From assembly GCA_963701855.1 (NCBI GenBank), contig CAVPBK010000005.1, positions 128,001 to 192,000 on the forward strand: a stretch of DNA of 64,000 bases. The letters are read 5' to 3'. Positions 141 to 11,227 of this stretch are shown here, piece after piece. Position numbers and translations under genes: made by a program. This DNA is from Nitrospirota bacterium. Its GTDB lineage: Bacteria > Nitrospirota > Nitrospiria > Nitrospirales > Nitrospiraceae. Below the pieces are notes generated by a model. It was given only the letters and a program-made list of their open reading frames with translations. It had not been told where the DNA came from and did not search any database. The first letter of the stretch is position 1. Every line of letters starts with the position of its first letter.

Positions 141-860
141 GTGAAACATCTCATGACACTCACACTTGCCGCTACGGCGTTGTTTGCTGTCTTAGTCGGA
201 ACCGCTGCCGCCGAAACTTCATTTGAGGGACGGAAGAAATGTAGTAATTGTCACAAGAGTGAGGCCGATTCATGGCTCAAGACCGCCCATGCCAAAGCGG
301 TCGACTCGCTCAAAGCCGACAGGAATAAGGAAAAGAATGCAGCCATGGTCAAGGCAAAGCTTGACCCTAAAAAGGACTTTAGCAAGGACAAGGATTGCAT
401 CGGCTGCCATGTGACTGGATTCGGGGTAGAAGGTGGGTATGAAATTTCGGAGCCGGACAAGTTCTTGATCGGTGTAGGTTGTGAATCCTGCCATGGGGCC
501 GGTCCAGATTACCGCAAGATTCACCGTAAGGCAGGCGAGGCCTTTGAAAAGTCGAAAAAGGTCACGCCGCGCGAGTCCCTCGCGGAAGCCGGACAAGAGT
601 TTGAGTTCATTGAGAAGTGCAGCTCGTGCCACCTGAACTACGAGGGCTCTGGGTGGAAAGGGACTAAGAAACCCTACACGCCTTTCACCCCCACTGTAGA
701 CAAGAAGTATACGTTCGACTTTGAGAAGATGGTGCGGAACAACAAGGCCATGCATGAACACTTTAAGCTAGCGGGCACGTTTGAAGGTCCGCCTACCCCA
801 AAGTTCCATGAAGAGTTCCAAAAAGATGCCAAGCCGGCTGAAATCGGTAAGGAGGAGTAA
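141..860 (+). CDS. cycA: Tetraheme cytochrome c554 (electron acceptor of hydroxylamine dehydrogenase)
   Basis: Signal peptide; four CxxCH motifs (CSNCH, CIGCH, CESCH, CSSCH); c554-like PYTPFTP..D.KY.F segment; AAGGAG RBS; stop overlaps the cycB start. Confidence 0.93.
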   Translation: MKHLMTLTLAATALFAVLVGTAAAETSFEGRKKCSNCHKSEADSWLKTAHAKAVDSLKADRNKEKNAAMVKAKLDPKKDFSKDKDCIGCHVTGFGVEGGYEISEPDKFLIGVGCESCHGAGPDYRKIHRKAGEAFEKSKKVTPRESLAEAGQEFEFIEKCSSCHLNYEGSGWKGTKKPYTPFTPTVDKKYTFDFEKMVRNNKAMHEHFKLAGTFEGPPTPKFHEEFQKDAKPAEIGKEE

Positions 861-1447
861 TGGCAGAGTGGGGTAGAGTTTCGATCGGTGCCCTGATTCT
901 TGGCGCAGCGATTGGCGTCGGAACTATTGCGGTGGTATTCGGAGGTGAAGCGGCCATATCCAGGACCGAGTTCTGCGTGAGCTGCCACTCCGAGACCTAC
1001 CCGTATGAGGAACTGAAGAAGTCCTCGCATTGGGGCGCGCTCGGTTCAGACCCTGGCTGTAAAAACTGCCATGTCCCGCAGGGTTTCCAGAACTTCCATC
1101 TGGCGTTGTGGACACATATCGTGGATGGACTGCCGTTCCTGATAGAAGAGTTCACCGTTGATTACTCGACGATCGAAAAGTTCAATGAGCGGCGGCCGGA
1201 GGCAGCCTACAGGGCACGGATGAAGCTGAAGGGGTGGGACAGCATGACCTGCCGGGCCTGCCACAGTAATCCAAAGCCGCCAGGTGCATCCGCCAAAGCT
1301 GCGCATAAGAAGATGGAGACGGAGGGTGCAACCTGCATCGATTGCCACCAGAATCTTGTGCATAAAAAAGTCCCAGAGACGGATCTCAATGCCAGTCTGG
1401 CTCAAGGCAAGATGGTGTTGAAGGAAGAGAAGAAAGAGAAAGACTGA
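860..1447 (+). CDS. cycB: Membrane-anchored tetraheme cytochrome cm552 (NapC/NirT family)
   Basis: N-terminal TM helix; CVSCH, CKNCH, CRACH, CIDCH motifs; follows cycA as in hao-cycAB clusters. Confidence 0.92.
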   Translation: MAEWGRVSIGALILGAAIGVGTIAVVFGGEAAISRTEFCVSCHSETYPYEELKKSSHWGALGSDPGCKNCHVPQGFQNFHLALWTHIVDGLPFLIEEFTVDYSTIEKFNERRPEAAYRARMKLKGWDSMTCRACHSNPKPPGASAKAAHKKMETEGATCIDCHQNLVHKKVPETDLNASLAQGKMVLKEEKKEKD

Positions 1448-1828: not shown

Positions 1829-2743
1829 ATGAGGTCGAGTTTGCTACGCCATTTCCCTGAGATTGATGCCGCCTATACGCATAGGAAAAGGGACTACACC
1901 ATAGCGGCGGTCACGTTTGCTTCTGTTGCGATCTGTATGGCGTTTGAAGTAAGCGGGAGTGTGTGGAAACAATATGCCCTAGGGTGTATCGCGTTGGTAT
2001 GTCTGATTGGGTTCTTGCGGGGTGAGACGAGAGAAGTACGATTGCAGGTTGCAGTGGCAGTCGCGTTTACGACAATCGGTGAATATGTGGCGTCTGTCTG
2101 TATGGGTGGCTACACCTATCGCTTCGACAATGTGCCGGCCTATGTGCCACTCGGTCACGGAATGGTGTATTTAACTTCCATTGCGTTGGCGCGTTCCGGG
2201 CTGTTTATTAAATATGCAAGAGTAATTACCACAACAGTGATTGTGATGTGCGGAGCATGGTCGATTTGGGGGATCAGCGGGATCCCAGAACAGGGTGATG
2301 TAGGAGGGGCGGTGCTCTTCTCTGTGTTTTTGATCTGTCTGTTTAGAGGTCGCTCGCCATTGGTGTACCTCGCGGCATTCTTTATTACAACTTGGCTGGA
2401 GATACTCGGCACAGCAGCTGGGGCCTGGAAATGGGCCTTGGTAGACCCTGTGTTTGGTTTGGCCCAGGGAAACCCTCCAAGTGGGGTTGCTGTCTGGTAT
2501 TGCCTTGTTGATGCGGTGGCCCTCACTGGAGGGCCTCTATTATCGCGCGGCCTGGAGAATGCCAGCGGATGGCTTACATCTAAGGGCTATTATCCTGAAC
2601 GAGTGGGGAGACTGTCAGATCTTCTAGGTTTCCGAGGTCATGTACGTGAGGATATTCAAACGCAGATACACCGCACCTCGCAGGCCATCAGTACATCGTT
2701 AAAGAACCCCGATCTTGCCGTCGAGCCTCTCGACAAAACCTAA
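1829..2743 (+). CDS. Hypothetical polytopic membrane protein
   Basis: 304 aa; several hydrophobic helices; GGYTYRFDNVPAYVPLGHG motif; GAGG RBS. Confidence 0.8.
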   Translation: MRSSLLRHFPEIDAAYTHRKRDYTIAAVTFASVAICMAFEVSGSVWKQYALGCIALVCLIGFLRGETREVRLQVAVAVAFTTIGEYVASVCMGGYTYRFDNVPAYVPLGHGMVYLTSIALARSGLFIKYARVITTTVIVMCGAWSIWGISGIPEQGDVGGAVLFSVFLICLFRGRSPLVYLAAFFITTWLEILGTAAGAWKWALVDPVFGLAQGNPPSGVAVWYCLVDAVALTGGPLLSRGLENASGWLTSKGYYPERVGRLSDLLGFRGHVREDIQTQIHRTSQAISTSLKNPDLAVEPLDKT

Positions 2744-3069: not shown

Positions 3070-3585
3070 CTACTTCGCGTCATCGCGCACACACCAGACA
3101 TAGTTCGTGTTGGTCTTAAAATCGTTGCCTACGAGGCCATAGTCGAAGTTTACGTCCCACGCGCTCATCGTATAGTCTTCATGCTCCGTCGACGTCCAAT
3201 AGCCAAAAAACTCGATGTTGGAAAATGGATGGCCAGGCGGGAGGGCAGGGGGAGGATATATCGTGTGATCCGCCAGGGTCGCCAACTCTTTGACTGCGGG
3301 CAAGCGCCAGCCCTTTTTGCCACCGACGGTCTTTTTCGCACAGATACCGGCGGCATTTTTCCAAACCGTCCTCGCTCTCGTCGGTATTGTCTCCCATACC
3401 AGCCCCGTCTCATTATCCAGCACCCCCTCATTATTCATGGCCTCTAGCACGACAAACCGCGCGCTCTGCGACTCAGCTGCTTCAGCAGGGGTGGCTCCTG
3501 AGCCGAAACCAGCCAGCGCCAGGCATACAACAGCCAGCCCCACAGCCCCGATGCGGCTCACCCATTTGGTTCTACTGCTTTTCAT
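3070..3585 (-). CDS. Secreted DUF1566 (Lcl C-terminal-like) domain protein
   Basis: Signal peptide; V.D.ETGLVWE, C....VGG..GWRLP..KEL, YWTST and VWCVR motifs. Confidence 0.85.
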   Translation of the reverse strand: MKSSRTKWVSRIGAVGLAVVCLALAGFGSGATPAEAAESQSARFVVLEAMNNEGVLDNETGLVWETIPTRARTVWKNAAGICAKKTVGGKKGWRLPAVKELATLADHTIYPPPALPPGHPFSNIEFFGYWTSTEHEDYTMSAWDVNFDYGLVGNDFKTNTNYVWCVRDDAK

Positions 3586-3704: not shown

Positions 3705-4709
3705 CTACAGCCCTTTGAAAAGGCTAGGATTGGTTGGACCATCTATCTTGAGCAGGCCGAGGGCGCCTTTTTCGGTGCGGAAGATCGAATGGTCAACCGA
3801 AACAAACGTGCCGGGCATTTCGCCTTTAAATTCTCCTATGGTCGCTTCACCTGGCGGCACCAGGGTGCTTTGGATACTCTCATATGGCGCTTTTGCCACG
3901 TTACCTCCTGGCCACACCCGATCTAACATCTCGCCGATGACGTGCCACGAAGAATCAAAGTTGACTCCTGCATTGCCAAAGAACCATCGATCGGTCTCTC
4001 CCACTTTAGATCGTAGCGGAACTTTGACCAGCGCGGTCATATGGCCGTTATGCACTATATAAGAAGCATCCGCATCTGTCACCTTTTGATTCGAAAAAAC
4101 CAGGGTATCATTCTTCTTGCCATCCTTCATGTAAAATTCGCTCTGCATGACATAGAATTCTTTTTCGACAGGCTTCAGCCCACCAACCGGCTCAACTAAG
4201 ATCAAGCCGTACATGCCACTCAAAAGGTGTTGTATGTTGGCTGGCGCTGCAGTGGAGGACTGATAGACAAAGAGACCTTGGTTGGTGGCCTTAAATGTTA
4301 TCTGAGCTTCCTTCCCGGGCTCCGCATTGACCAGGGCGGCTCCGCCACTGGCCTTATTGAAGTCAAGATTGTGACTCTGCTTGCTGTCCTTCTTGTTCTT
4401 CAAATGGACTTCAACCGTATCGCCCACCATGACGCGGATCATGGGCCCTGGCACCATTCCATTAACACCCCAGAACTCATAATTGTTATCGTCGCTAATC
4501 GGACCGACCCACTCGGACGCTTCCAGGTTGACCACGACGGTGGCGGGCTGGGTTCGTGTGATGGGAGGGGGAACATTGGGTGCCTTCGTCAGTTGGGCTT
4601 GGATGGTTTCCGCCGACACCACGCCTGCATTGATGGCAAGACAGGGAGCCATGACCAATGCGCTGATCAATCCGGCATGACGCACGCTACGCAAAAAACT
4701 CTTGGACAT
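3705..4709 (-). CDS. NirK-like two-cupredoxin protein, paralog B (no T1Cu Cys or domain-1 T2Cu His; keeps His_cat and the domain-2 T2Cu His)
   Basis: AniA/NirK-like sequence (PGPMIRVMVGD, GMYGLILVEP, FYVMQSEFY); HNLDFNK and VYQSS replace HNIDFH and YHC; SSWHVIGE and VDHSIFR retained. Confidence 0.9.
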   Translation of the reverse strand: MSKSFLRSVRHAGLISALVMAPCLAINAGVVSAETIQAQLTKAPNVPPPITRTQPATVVVNLEASEWVGPISDDNNYEFWGVNGMVPGPMIRVMVGDTVEVHLKNKKDSKQSHNLDFNKASGGAALVNAEPGKEAQITFKATNQGLFVYQSSTAAPANIQHLLSGMYGLILVEPVGGLKPVEKEFYVMQSEFYMKDGKKNDTLVFSNQKVTDADASYIVHNGHMTALVKVPLRSKVGETDRWFFGNAGVNFDSSWHVIGEMLDRVWPGGNVAKAPYESIQSTLVPPGEATIGEFKGEMPGTFVSVDHSIFRTEKGALGLLKIDGPTNPSLFKGL

Positions 4710-4822
4710 GACGCCTCCTTTAATTTTGGATTAACTCTGTGCGGCCATCATCCTGATCACCTGCCTGCAGAGTACTTAAGGCCTTTGTAGATGGCCTAGC
4801 TGGCGGATTCTCTAGACTACCT

Positions 4823-5800
4823 TCAGTCTACCTTCAGCAGGCCAAGGGCGCCTTTGTCCTTTCGATCCTTCACTGGGTCAACGATAGTATAGGTGCCCGC
4901 CTTGACTTTAAACTCTACCATGACAGCGCCACCTGTAGGAATCCTGGTAACCTTGACATTCTCCGCCGGAGGTGAGGTCAAAGAACCCTCGGTGTACACC
5001 CTGTCCATCGTCTGTTCGAGGATCTGCAAAGACGAGACAAAGTTGGGTCCTGAGTTGGTTAAGAAAATCCGAACTGTGTCTCCGGCCTTGGCTCGAAGAG
5101 GATTTTTGACCAGCGAGCTCGCATTGCCGTTATATACAACATGGGAGGGGCGCTCGTCCAACCCATTTTCGTACGAAAACTCCAAGGTCTCGCCCTTGCC
5201 GCCCTCTTTCGAGTAAAACTCGCTTTCCATGATCTGGAATTCTTTTTCGACAGGCTTCAGCCCACCGACTGGCTCAACTATGATCGTGCCGTACATGCCA
5301 TTCGAAATGTGCTCGGGAATGGATGGCGATGCGGTGGCGCAGTGATACAAAAAGACGCCAGGAATGATCATCTTAAACTTTCCCCCGCTCTCCTGCCCTG
5401 GCTCGCTATTGAGCAGGCTAGCCCCGCCGCCTGGTCCCGTGATCGCATGGAAGTCAATATTATGAGATTCCTTGCTGTCCTTATGGTTCTTCAAACGGAT
5501 TTCAACCGTATCGCCCACCATGACGCGGATCATGGGCCCTGGCACGTTTTTATTAAAACCCCAAAACTCATAGTTGTTATCGTCGCTAAGCGGACCGACC
5601 CACTCGTTCGATTCCAGGTTGACCACGACGGTGGCGGGCTGGGTTCGTGTGATGGGAGGAGGAACATTGGGTGCGATCGCCAGTTGGGCTTTGATGGTCT
5701 CCGCCGACACCACGCCTGCGTTGATGGCAAGACACGGAGCCATGACCAATGCGCTGATCAATCCGGCATGACGCACATTACGCGAAAAACTTTTGGACAT
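4823..5800 (-). CDS. NirK-like two-cupredoxin protein, paralog A (intact T1Cu site and domain-1 T2Cu ligands; lacks His_cat and the domain-2 T2Cu His)
   Basis: HNIDFH and YHC...H....M retained; SSLQILEQ replaces SSFHVIGE; IVDPVKD replaces VDHS; ends at LLKVD without the C-terminal arm. Confidence 0.9.
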   Translation of the reverse strand: MSKSFSRNVRHAGLISALVMAPCLAINAGVVSAETIKAQLAIAPNVPPPITRTQPATVVVNLESNEWVGPLSDDNNYEFWGFNKNVPGPMIRVMVGDTVEIRLKNHKDSKESHNIDFHAITGPGGGASLLNSEPGQESGGKFKMIIPGVFLYHCATASPSIPEHISNGMYGTIIVEPVGGLKPVEKEFQIMESEFYSKEGGKGETLEFSYENGLDERPSHVVYNGNASSLVKNPLRAKAGDTVRIFLTNSGPNFVSSLQILEQTMDRVYTEGSLTSPPAENVKVTRIPTGGAVMVEFKVKAGTYTIVDPVKDRKDKGALGLLKVD

Positions 5801-5908
5801 GACGCCTCCTTTGATTTTGGACTGCCCTGACGGTTTCTTCTCTCATACGACGTGGGACGAACCGAATGGTTTCAGCCCCGGTTCAGGGCATTGTCATTAC
5901 CCGCCTGC

Positions 5909-6370
5909 TTAAGGTTTGTAACATGAGTGGTCGTGCGGCTTGCCCCCGTTCGAGAACTGGTTCTCAAACGCCATCACATGCCAGATCTGCTCCTCCGACA
6001 GCATGCTCTTCCAGGCTTTCATCTTCGTCTTCGGGATACCTTCCGAAATTCGCCAGTACCAGAAGCTGTCGGACCAACGGCAGATATTTTTAGGATCACG
6101 CATATCCCGCGCACCCTTTTTTACGGGTTGACCATCCTTACCATGGCAGCTGCCACAGTTGACCTGCGGATTAGCCTCGCCGCTGTAAATCAGCGCTCCA
6201 TCTTCGATAGCCTTAGGATCCGTCCACCCTCCAGCCGGCATTTTTTTGTCTGCATACTCGGCTGGAACCGGGGGCAAAGGGGGTTCATCTTCAGCGAAGG
6301 CCATGCCCCCTGACAGAATCAGAGCGCTCCCCAGCATCATGATCGACATACCGAAATACCTTCCCGTCAT
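5909..6370 (-). CDS. Periplasmic monoheme class I cytochrome c
   Basis: Signal peptide (AFA); one CGSCH motif; probable distal Met in KTKMKAW; AGGAGG RBS; first gene of the NirK-like operon. Confidence 0.88.
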   Translation of the reverse strand: MTGRYFGMSIMMLGSALILSGGMAFAEDEPPLPPVPAEYADKKMPAGGWTDPKAIEDGALIYSGEANPQVNCGSCHGKDGQPVKKGARDMRDPKNICRWSDSFWYWRISEGIPKTKMKAWKSMLSEEQIWHVMAFENQFSNGGKPHDHSCYKP

Positions 6371-9399: not shown

Positions 9400-10407
9400 T
9401 ATGACTCTCTCCAAGTTGGGAGAGGGCTCGATATCAAACGACTCAAGGAGTTGGCGCACGAGCACAGCAATCTGAAACGCCTCTATGCCGACATGGCGTT
9501 GGAGAATGCGGCGCTGAAGAATGTCCTCGCACAAAAGATCTACGGCTTGTTGAGCGGCAGGAGATGGTGATCCACCTGGCCACGCAAGGCGGCCTTTCGT
9601 TCAGCAGGCCTGTCAGGCTGTGGGACTCAGCCGGGCCCACCTACTATCGTCCCCTGGTGGATTGGGCATGCCGTGATGCGGCGGTGATAGAGGTACTGAC
9701 CACGTTGGGTACCACGAAACCCCGCCGGGGGTTTTGGAAATACGTGGACCAGTTGTGGCTTACCGGGTATCGCTGGAACCATAAGCGCTTGTGGCGGGTG
9801 TACTGCCGACTCCGACTCGATCTGCCGCGACGAACCAAGAAGCGGCTGCCGGTATGGCCAGTTGCACCCGATGGCCCTGATCCCACAGCCCAATGTCGTG
9901 TGGGTACTCGACTACATGGGTGAGACGTTGTAGGGCGGGCGGCGGTTCCGGACCTTGAATATTCTGAATGACGGGGTGCGAGAAGCCTTGGCGATCGAAG
10001 TGGACACGTCGTTGCCCGCCGAACGCGTGATTCTGGTGCTGGAGCTCGTAACAGCCTGGCGGGGCAACCGCAGGCCCTTCGGCGCGACAACGGCCAAGAA
10101 TTCCTCGCCGATCGTGTTGCAATCTGGTGTGCGGATCGTGGGATCGCGCTCCGGTGTATTCAGTCGGGCAAGCCCAATCAGAATGCCTTCATTGAAGGGT
10201 TCAATCGGACGGGGCGACATGCGGTGCTCGATGCGTATGTCTTCGAGTCTCTCGATCAGGTGTGAGACATCAGTGCGCAGTGGATGCAGGAGTACAATGA
10301 GGAGCGCCCCCATGACACCTTGGAGCGGGTGCCACTGTCCCTGTTCAGCGCCTGACAAACCGCCGGAAGTTCTTCTTTGAAACTATCTTCTTGACGGAGA
10401 AGCTTAC
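9400..10407 (+). mobile_element. Degenerate IS3-family element (OrfA C-terminus and OrfB with stops and frameshifts)
   Basis: OrfA-like DIKRLKEL...LKRLYADMALEN; OrfB pieces NHKR..RVY, W..DY, RTLNI.ND, DNG.EF, GKPNQNAFIE.FN, YNEERPH; IS3-like right end TTGACGGAGAAGCTTAC; left end uncertain. Confidence 0.85.
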
Positions 10408-11227
10408 GAAATGCCTCGGCTACATCGCGTACGTGGTGTCGGTCGATGAGGGCCGACAGGGTTCTCGATCCAGACCGTTTCATTGGGGACAATGATTTCG
10501 TAAGGACGGTGGTTTTTGATATGTGGGAGCAACTCGTTTTCGTAGGTGACGATCACGTCTCCCACTCCGCGCTCGAAAGTCGTGACCGATTCGCGCCCCC
10601 TCTTGTCCATCACCTTCACGTTTTTCTGGATGTGCTTCAACAACCCTACGGCAACGGCTTCTGCCGATTCGGCACTCGGTTTCTTTCCGGCACCTGCCTG
10701 CTGCTCGGCAAGTTTCAGCCCAGCTCCATAGATCGTGAGATCGCGACCGCATCCCACATCGCTCCGCCCGGCGTCTTGGGATTTGGATAGAGGACTTCTA
10801 TGCCGGGTCTGGCGAGATCCTCCCGGACCTTGATCCCCTTCGGATTTCCCTTCCGCACCCCGAGTGCGACGACTGAGGCGGAGATCATCCCTTTGTGCGG
10901 TCCTGTCCGCCAGTCATGAGAAATCAATCCCGCCTTGGCGATCTGGTCGAGATCACCCTCCAGTGAGAGCGCTGCCACGTCGGCGTCGAACCCTCCGATG
11001 ATCGCCCTAGCCTGGGCACCAGATGCTCCGTACGAACTTCGGATACGAACGTCTTGTCCCGTCCGTTGTTTCCAGCTCCGCTGGAACGCAGGTATGATCG
11101 TGCGTTCGTAGGCTTCCTTTGGCATGCTATAGACCGCCAGCACCAACTCCTTGGTCTCTCCGGCTATGACGGAACTGGAGAATGCTACTCACGCTAGCAA
11201 GACAGGAAATAGGATTGAGACAAACAT
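10408..11227 (-). pseudogene. sbp: Sulfate ABC transporter substrate-binding protein, disrupted
   Basis: SYGASGAQARAI..G..ADV, VRKGNPKGI, PNPKT.GGA and GDVIVTYENE motifs; TGA in the signal peptide, frameshift near 10750, 3' end cut by the IS3 remnant. Confidence 0.85.

Follow-up and report, generated by a model that had tools for sequence, protein, structure and literature searches.

Can the active site of a copper-containing nitrite reductase (CuNiR) be shared between two different proteins, neither of which has a complete site of its own? This question is raised by a tandem pair of nirK genes, whose products we call NirK-A and NirK-B (A and B for short), in the 64,000-nucleotide stretch of a Nitrospirota genome that was analysed here (the window, G000:C5:128001-192000, G000 being the genome that bears it). 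CuNiRs are among the best-studied metalloenzymes and are treated as homotrimers with three equal sites. Their type-1 copper is bound by His95, Cys136, His145 and Met150, and His255 and His306 come from domain 2 of the neighbouring chain. As described in the passages of PMC5571812 that deal with the site, the type-2 copper of the homotrimer is held by His100, His135 and His306 between adjacent monomers, through a Cys-His bridge it is linked with the type-1 copper, and the catalytic residues are Asp98, His255 and a capping Ile. An earlier note on this DNA had proposed that A and B have lost these residues in an exactly reciprocal manner and have subfunctionalised into a hetero-oligomer. We find that A and B jointly hold every type-1, type-2 and catalytic residue (10 positions), and the comparative and in silico evidence presented below supports that proposal: the pair is probably an obligate hetero-oligomer, each trimer of which has a single complete active site, a reading in which we place somewhat more belief than doubt.

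Both genes lie on the minus strand and, as the earlier note had it, are full length with intact open reading frames:

3705..4709, minus strand: NirK-B, 334 amino acids, intact open reading frame, PF07732
4823..5800, minus strand: NirK-A, 325 amino acids, intact open reading frame, PF07732

The solved CuNiR 6the aligns with residues 36-324 of A (E 1.8e-83) and 35-333 of B (E 1e-81), followed by 2dv6, 6tfd, 2zoo and 1kbv as further solved relatives, and two cupredoxin domains with full-length CuNiR homology are present in both proteins, which are 61% identical to one another (199/326). The ribosome-binding site AAAGGAGG is found 6 nucleotides ahead of the ATG in both genes, as had been claimed, while the signal peptides claimed along with it are a matter of deduction: because the N-terminal leaders are hydrophobic and nearly identical in A and B, we take them to be signal peptides, and the proteins would be exported.

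We read the copper and catalytic positions from the 6the and 2dv6 alignments and from a column table, naming them by CuNiR reference numbers (His95 to His306). Their location in the window is as follows:

5447..5464, minus strand: motif HNIDFH of A, equivalents of His95, Asp98 and His100, from the alignment
5339..5347, minus strand: motif YHC of A, His135 and Cys136, the electron bridge between the coppers (C154 codon 5339-5341)
5024..5026, minus strand: Gln259 of A at the position of catalytic His255, from the alignment
4874..4876, minus strand: Pro309 of A at the position of type-2 ligand His306, from the alignment
4356..4373, minus strand: motif HNLDFN of B, with His95 and Asp98 kept and Asn for His100 (N118 codon 4356-4358)
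4257..4262, minus strand: Gln150-Ser151 of B at His135-Cys136 (Q150 codon 4260-4262)
3942..3944, minus strand: His256 of B, equivalent of catalytic His255, from the alignment; the model interface described below includes B 254-256
3789..3791, minus strand: His307 of B, equivalent of type-2 ligand His306, from the alignment; the model interface includes B 306-314

A keeps all of the domain-1 copper residues (H113, D116, H118, H153, C154, H164 and M169) and has Q259, L261 and P309 in place of His255, Ile257 and His306, which confirms residue by residue, in the alignments and the column table, what the earlier note had described; its motif coordinates are also correct. B has N118, Q150 and S151 in place of His100, His135 and Cys136, and retains H256, I258 and H307 (His255, Ile257 and His306). 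The earlier description of B, as having lost the domain-1 ligands and kept His255 and His306, is therefore right for the latter part and too sweeping for the former, since H113, D116, H161 and M166, that is, three of the four type-1 ligands and Asp98, are still in place. In terms of sites, all four type-1 ligands (His95, Cys136, His145 and Met150) are present in A and not in B; the type-2 ligands His100, His135 and His306 are complete in neither; and the trio of Asp98, His255 and Ile257 is whole in B, A having Asp98 only. The two proteins also differ in that A lacks a C-terminal tail of about 10 residues found in B and in the single-copy form of the enzyme (3' end of the gene, 4823-4852), and B, which keeps the tail, has a GPG deletion after the HNxDF motif.

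The pattern is conserved in relatives. When 201 genomes of the same family (Nitrospiraceae) were searched with A as the query, 55 matched at E <= 1e-40 (one of them, G006, is unpublished, and no result depends on it). Syntenic pairs with the same substitutions, which the earlier note had proposed to look for, were found in 13 genomes, seven of genus g1 (G000 included) and six of genus g10. In all 13 pairs, 58-117 nucleotides separate A from the B gene that follows it, both frames are intact in every one of these genomes across the two genera, and A and B are always found together in them; a further A gene, in L030, is cut off by the end of its contig. All 13 A orthologues (A included, the other 12 being 80-94% identical to it) have Gln, Leu and Pro at 255, 257 and 306, plus all seven domain-1 residues. 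Every B orthologue (13/13) keeps H255, I257 and H306 and is devoid of both His135 (Gln in nine, Arg in four) and Cys136 (Ser in 12, Pro in one), and the His100 position is occupied by Gln in five, Thr in four, Gly in two, and Asn and His in one each. The 16 rows of single-copy or more distant relatives keep 10 residues out of 10.

A broader sample gave a similar picture. The 120 metagenome proteins found with B as the query comprise 64 canonical, 36 B-type and 19 A-type proteins and one fragment. The A-type proteins (19/19) keep all seven domain-1 residues and have Gln at 255, with variation at 257 (L, E, I, M, T or N) and at 306 (P, A, S, T or V). The B-type proteins that cover the positions keep H255, I257 and H306, one misaligned fragment excepted, and all 36 show Ser at 136 and Gln or Arg at 135; position 100 can be H, Q, G, N, T or S, and His100 is kept in 21 of the 36. 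What is universally lost in B is the Cys-His bridge (His135 and Cys136), the loss of His100 not being universal, so that the exactly reciprocal loss claimed earlier holds in this genome and has to be relaxed for the many B relatives that keep His100. That the pattern is not random decay, as the earlier note had also argued, is borne out by its being complementary in 13/13 pairs and by the 19 A-type and 36 B-type metagenome proteins. Judged from these sequences, the retained half-sites are fixed and most of the lost positions drift, as dead half-sites would show. We also observed that the B-type sequences all keep the equivalents of His95, His145 and Met150 (B 113, 161 and 166), despite having Ser at the type-1 Cys.

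A maximum-likelihood tree of 41 rows, from which the partial rows L003, L030 and L031 were excluded, recovers A and B as monophyletic clades (100/100 each) in a sister relationship (96/91), with long stems (0.23 and 0.43) and short, largely congruent crowns; 11 of the 12 single-copy rows form the sister clade of A plus B, and L027 branches below both. On this phylogeny A and B are the products of one tandem duplication of a normal two-domain CuNiR. Both are under purifying selection. The median ratio of non-synonymous to synonymous substitution (dN/dS, pairwise, Nei-Gojobori) is 0.31 for A (77 pairs) and 0.24 for B (77 pairs), not the value near 1 that the earlier note had set against its proposal, and it is 0.19 for the single-copy clade (66 pairs).

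Part of the pair has been kept alike by gene conversion:

5456..5820, minus strand: 5' tract of A, running from its ribosome-binding site to about codon 115 and homogenised with B tract 4365-4729

Within a genome, the nucleotide identity of A and B is 85-93% in this tract versus 52-67% over most of the remainder, and a second island, of 92% identity, is found at A codons 169-188 (MYG...VEPVGGL...KEF). In every g1 genome, A and B have been homogenised over the ribosome-binding site and the first ~115 codons: the synonymous divergence (dS) of the tract is 0.06-0.11 in five g1 genomes, 0.26 in L009 and 0.48 in L015, and that of the rest of the gene is 0.59-0.74 (0.98 in L015), the figures for G000 being 0.11 in the tract versus 0.74 in the remainder. 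In G000 and L010, the tract of A is closer to that of its own B (92-94%) than to that of an orthologous A (88%). The conversion tract ends just ahead of the HNxDFH motif, a boundary that fits with selection holding the two ligand-bearing regions distinct.

The identity of the single-copy NirK (L018-L029) is 64-68% with A and 56-60% with B. The same cytochrome c gene is found upstream of it, and it is often located 3-10 kb from amoA, but it carries all ten residues in one chain. No intact single-copy gene was found in the 13 pair genomes (10 of the 12 other than G000 were re-searched at E <= 0.001). G000 has a remnant of it (C5:105036-105694), frameshifted and with its 5' end cut by an IS3-type element, in which 7 of the 10 ligand positions are covered and all seven residues are still present. 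The element (HTH_Tnp_1 and rve open reading frames) and the remnant that it abuts together span L003 299-2109 (G000:C5:103896-105706), and the remnant sits between a NirK gene of another clade and amoA, 2.8 kb from the latter, like the intact single-copy gene in G195. In a second pair genome we observed two short remnants (G167:C90:3776-3965) with 67% identity to single-copy NirK residues 133-195, one of them with a stop, between amoA and the other-clade NirK, matching the place of the G000 relic; this looks like a second, more decayed single-copy relic. Because an intact single-copy gene is missing or broken in the pair genomes, the data suggest that A and B made the single-copy enzyme redundant.

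The other-clade NirK of G000 (L004 1423-2415, G000:C5:102716-103708, minus strand) is complete, with 330 amino acids, 31% identity to A and all copper and catalytic motifs present, and it has a counterpart in all 10 other pair genomes checked, G155 excepted, in two pieces in G151. This gene also bears on the use of the NCBIfam equivalog TIGR02376 (cut-off 296.3 bits) as a criterion of CuNiR membership: A (235.1) and B (238.6) are both under the cut-off and the single-copy L018 scores 296.9, but the complete other-clade NirK fails too (213.9), and we set the cut-off aside as uninformative.

The divergence of A and B extends beyond the ligands. Out of 186 columns that are invariant in the single-copy clade, 16 are altered only in A, 15 of these in domain 2, and 40 are altered only in B, 23 of these in domain 1 (Fisher p = 0.0007 for A-only versus B-only changes by domain). 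The A-only changes in domain 2 cluster at the WHxIGE and DH motifs and at the deleted C-terminal tail, and the B-only changes in domain 1 concern the HNxDFH motif, the GPG deletion, YHCA and the type-1 loop.

We modelled the mature parts of A and B as a two-chain complex, with alignments of our own, in three runs differing by seed only. The A+B model scores 0.95 versus 0.01 for the best of three controls, a mark that 116 of 157 solved complexes reached, as did 2 of 215 mismatched pairs; these counts are a rough guide when own alignments are used. The runs share at least 99% of contacts, with a partner pLDDT of at least 94. The modelled interface sets A 116 and 118-126 against B 254-256, 258-261 and 306-314, such that the Asp116/His118 face of A lies opposite the His256/His307 face of B, in the orientation that would rebuild the full site. 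The earlier idea that an interface between domain 1 of A and domain 2 of B rebuilds the site is in keeping with a model that puts those very faces together. The C-terminal tail of B (329-334) rests on A 141-143 in the model; A is without this tail, so that such a contact is not available to it towards its own neighbour, and ring assembly may be biased as a result. Conservation at the interface columns of the model follows the same division. On the domain-1 face, ancestral residues are kept at 30/38 columns in A and 14/38 in B (p = 0.0004), and on the domain-2 face at 19/31 in B and 10/31 in A (p = 0.04), the off-interface figures being 148/180 for A and 132/180 for B.

The pair is embedded in a nitrification locus, in which the minus-strand order is cytochrome c gene, NirK-A, a 113-nucleotide spacer, NirK-B and a gene with an Lcl_C domain:

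5909..6370, minus strand: monohaem class-I cytochrome c, PF13442 and PF00034, directly upstream of A
4710..4822, minus strand: spacer between A and B, 113 nucleotides, holding the B ribosome-binding site AAAGGAGG
3070..3585, minus strand: secreted Lcl_C protein (PF07603, DUF1566-type), downstream of B
141-860, plus strand: cycA (c554), end of the haoA-haoB-cycA-cycB cluster
860-1447, plus strand: cycB (NapC/NirT type), last gene of the same cluster

The cytochrome c is a likely redox partner of A, and its gene is likely the first of an operon. A homologue is found directly upstream in all 13 pair loci and in L030, and was matched in 12/12 single-copy loci (L018-L029), two of the matches being weak or partial. 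A scan for promoters and terminators gave a promoter-like site upstream of the cytochrome c gene (6604-6576, minus strand, a consensus match only) and no terminator-like site in the spacer between A and B; the counts of sites are near those of shuffles (5 vs 2.9 and 5 vs 3.6), and the scan lends the operon weak support. The Lcl_C gene may be its fourth member. Of the six other pair loci of the same genus, five have a homologue downstream of B and L015 has none, and there is a short partial match in L012 of the second genus; near the single-copy NirK loci, none was found within the flanks examined.

The end of B is 2.2 kb from cycB, so the pair adjoins haoAB-cycAB, and the DNA just upstream of the window carries amoA, amoC, copCD, ccm genes, haoA and haoB; given these amo and hao genes, the organism is a comammox Nitrospira. 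Of the 201 genomes, 38 have amoA, among them all 13 pair genomes; its identity to G000 amoA is >90% in g1 and ~60% in g10, which indicates the two comammox clades. Some other features of the region were observed. A predicted membrane protein of 304 amino acids (1829-2743, plus strand), which has no Pfam or NCBIfam match, lies between cycB and the NirK operon, and homologues of it flank the NirK pair in two other genomes (L006 and L008). An IS1595-family transposase gene (L035 2487-3407, minus strand) lies between amoC and copCD of the ammonia-oxidation island. At 10404-11146 of the window (minus strand), two adjacent open reading frames (143 and 117 amino acids) match successive parts of PF13531 (10-120 and 126-184), and are probably one solute-binding protein gene split by a frameshift. 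Finally, 9564-10380 contains many overlapping open reading frames on both strands, two of which were tested and gave no Pfam match, and may be a degraded mobile-element remnant.

Compared with known enzymes, A and B have the same fold and length as the AniA-like two-domain NirK (6the, 2dv6, 6tfd, 2zoo and 1kbv; E ~1e-83), and we count the adjoining cytochrome c gene among the likenesses. The difference lies in the sites: the known homotrimers have three identical complete ones, in the passages of PMC5571812 that treat them, whereas the type-2 site is incomplete in A and in B alike, and the type-1 Cys is missing from B. The tandem pair itself is already known. Palomo et al. 2022 (PMC9714041; 2017 preprint 10.1101/138586) describe two nirK genes that neighbour the HAO cluster in comammox clade A2 and some clade B genomes, and infer horizontal transfer of the HAO region between these clades. 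Going by the relevant passages, this is very probably the same locus, a tandem nirK beside haoAB-cycAB common to both comammox clades (PMC9714041); the pair is treated there as a duplicate nirK, and ligand loss or a mixed complex does not appear in those passages. A NirK phylogeny (PMC10999283) refers to conserved catalytic-site residues and is silent on these pairs in the passages concerned. The part for which our literature search turned up no precedent is the reciprocal ligand loss in these genes, and the search likewise gave no paper on a heteromeric CuNiR. Hetero-oligomers of paralogues with complementary losses exist elsewhere, as in trypanosomatid deoxyhypusine synthase, AdoMetDC and its 'prozyme', and the Vma3/Vma11 ring of the fungal V-ATPase; in such pairs, the copies of a duplicated homomer each lose a different part of a shared interface or site, and both become necessary. 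The folds and chemistry of these three systems are unrelated to those of the NirK pair.

In the mechanism that we propose, A and B would divide the inter-subunit active site of the ancestral CuNiR between them. A would supply the type-1 copper, the Cys-His bridge, the type-2 ligands His118 and His153 and the catalytic Asp116, and B the third type-2 ligand His307, the catalytic His256 and the capping Ile258. Since the type-2 site lies between monomers (PMC5571812, in the passages on the site), the retained half-sites would be useless alone, and only B would offer A the third His. Once exported, A and B would co-assemble as a NirK-type oligomer, by homology a trimer, in which only the interface between domain 1 of A and domain 2 of B carries the complete unit for electron transfer and catalysis, which leads from the type-1 copper over the Cys-His bridge to the type-2 copper. 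A ring of three would have one such A-to-B interface, be it A2B or AB2. Electrons would be exchanged between the type-1 copper of A and the cytochrome c encoded upstream, the complex would interconvert nitrite and nitric oxide (NO), and the pair would replace the single-copy enzyme in the comammox lineages with the hao-linked locus. Export, co-assembly, copper loading, activity and stoichiometry of the complex are what we infer from the comparisons and the model. Subfunctionalisation of a homotrimer into an obligate hetero-oligomer is the simplest account of these data.

Several points weigh against this account. B keeps three type-1 ligands, Asp98 and often His100, none of which the split site needs, and its domain 1 may still do something; likewise, the invariant Gln255 of A (13/13 and 19/19) gives a hint of some specific function, as opposed to simple loss. 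Having one site per trimer instead of the ancestor's three is a threefold reduction that brings no evident benefit, and two diverged faces (domain 1 of B, 14/38; domain 2 of A, 10/31) must still close the ring. The success of the model may reflect memory of solved NirK homotrimers, that is, likeness and not binding. The dN/dS of A and B is somewhat above that of the single-copy clade. Finally, this NirK lineage has no member in 15 of the 38 genomes with amoA (E <= 1e-40, query A), and at that threshold the idea of the pair as an essential comammox enzyme was rejected.

Some of these points would be expected if A and B were independent homo-oligomers with new and separate functions and their complementarity a by-product, A being a type-1 copper protein with a two-His site (an electron carrier or another nitrogen-oxide enzyme) and B a copper-poor protein with some other role. 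New roles predict the near fixation of Gln259 in A and of Ser at Cys136 in B; the retention in B of His95, His145, Met150, Asp98 and often His100 goes in the same direction, the long stems (0.23 and 0.43) fit a burst of change, and the complete other-clade NirK (L004 1423-2415) means that nitrite reduction need not depend on A and B. We nevertheless regard this as unlikely, because it leaves unexplained the strict conservation of Asp98, His100 and His135 in A and of His255, Ile257 and His306 in B, two sets that are each incomplete alone, as well as the drift at the other lost positions, the missing or broken single-copy gene wherever the pair occurs, and the ancestral surface kept just on the face that meets the retained face of the partner. 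A slightly less probable alternative is that A and B do co-assemble, as the model favours, but with B as a non-catalytic scaffold or regulator (a pseudoenzyme), or with the mixed site doing other chemistry, such as hydroxylamine or NO turnover linked to HAO. The position of the pair here, 2.2 kb from haoAB-cycAB, and the presence of amoA in all pair genomes (13/13) would suit such a role, and so would what PMC9714041 reports in the passages cited above, namely two nirK genes adjoining the HAO cluster in clade A2 and in some genomes of clade B, and an inferred transfer of the HAO region. The strict His255, Ile257 and His306 of B are, however, best explained by a classical type-2 site, and the loss of the single-copy gene in the pair genomes suggests the same function, not a new one. 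That A and B are functionless, decaying duplicates with a reciprocal pattern arisen by chance is very improbable. Each protein is indeed without residues that define the enzyme, and dN/dS is above that of the single-copy clade, but the frames are intact in 13/13 genomes across two genera, dN/dS is 0.31 and 0.24, the same substitutions recur in orthologues down to 80% identity, and the true pseudogene of G000 looks different, being truncated by an insertion sequence and frameshifted. On the intact frames and dN/dS we rejected decay, which is largely refuted.

If A and B are the obligate hetero-oligomer that we favour, they would offer a clear-cut example of how a duplication can be followed by complementary losses at a metal site shared between subunits, and would provide a native single-site trimer for studies of electron transfer and of possible cross-talk between sites. 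The pair also matters for surveys of nirK, since those that filter on catalytic-site residues would probably drop both A and B, and those that count any match would score them as two working enzymes. By its linkage to hao, the pair is a candidate for the disputed role of NirK in NO handling during nitrification, which bears on the release of NO and nitrous oxide (N2O) from soils and water treatment. We also raise, as a speculation that we hold to be doubtful, that the A/B complex, moving with the HAO cluster between comammox clades, and the cytochrome c together perform the NO-to-nitrite step that completes ammonia oxidation; if this were true, the pair would be the first natural heteromeric CuNiR and a possible answer to the long search for a third enzyme of bacterial ammonia oxidation.

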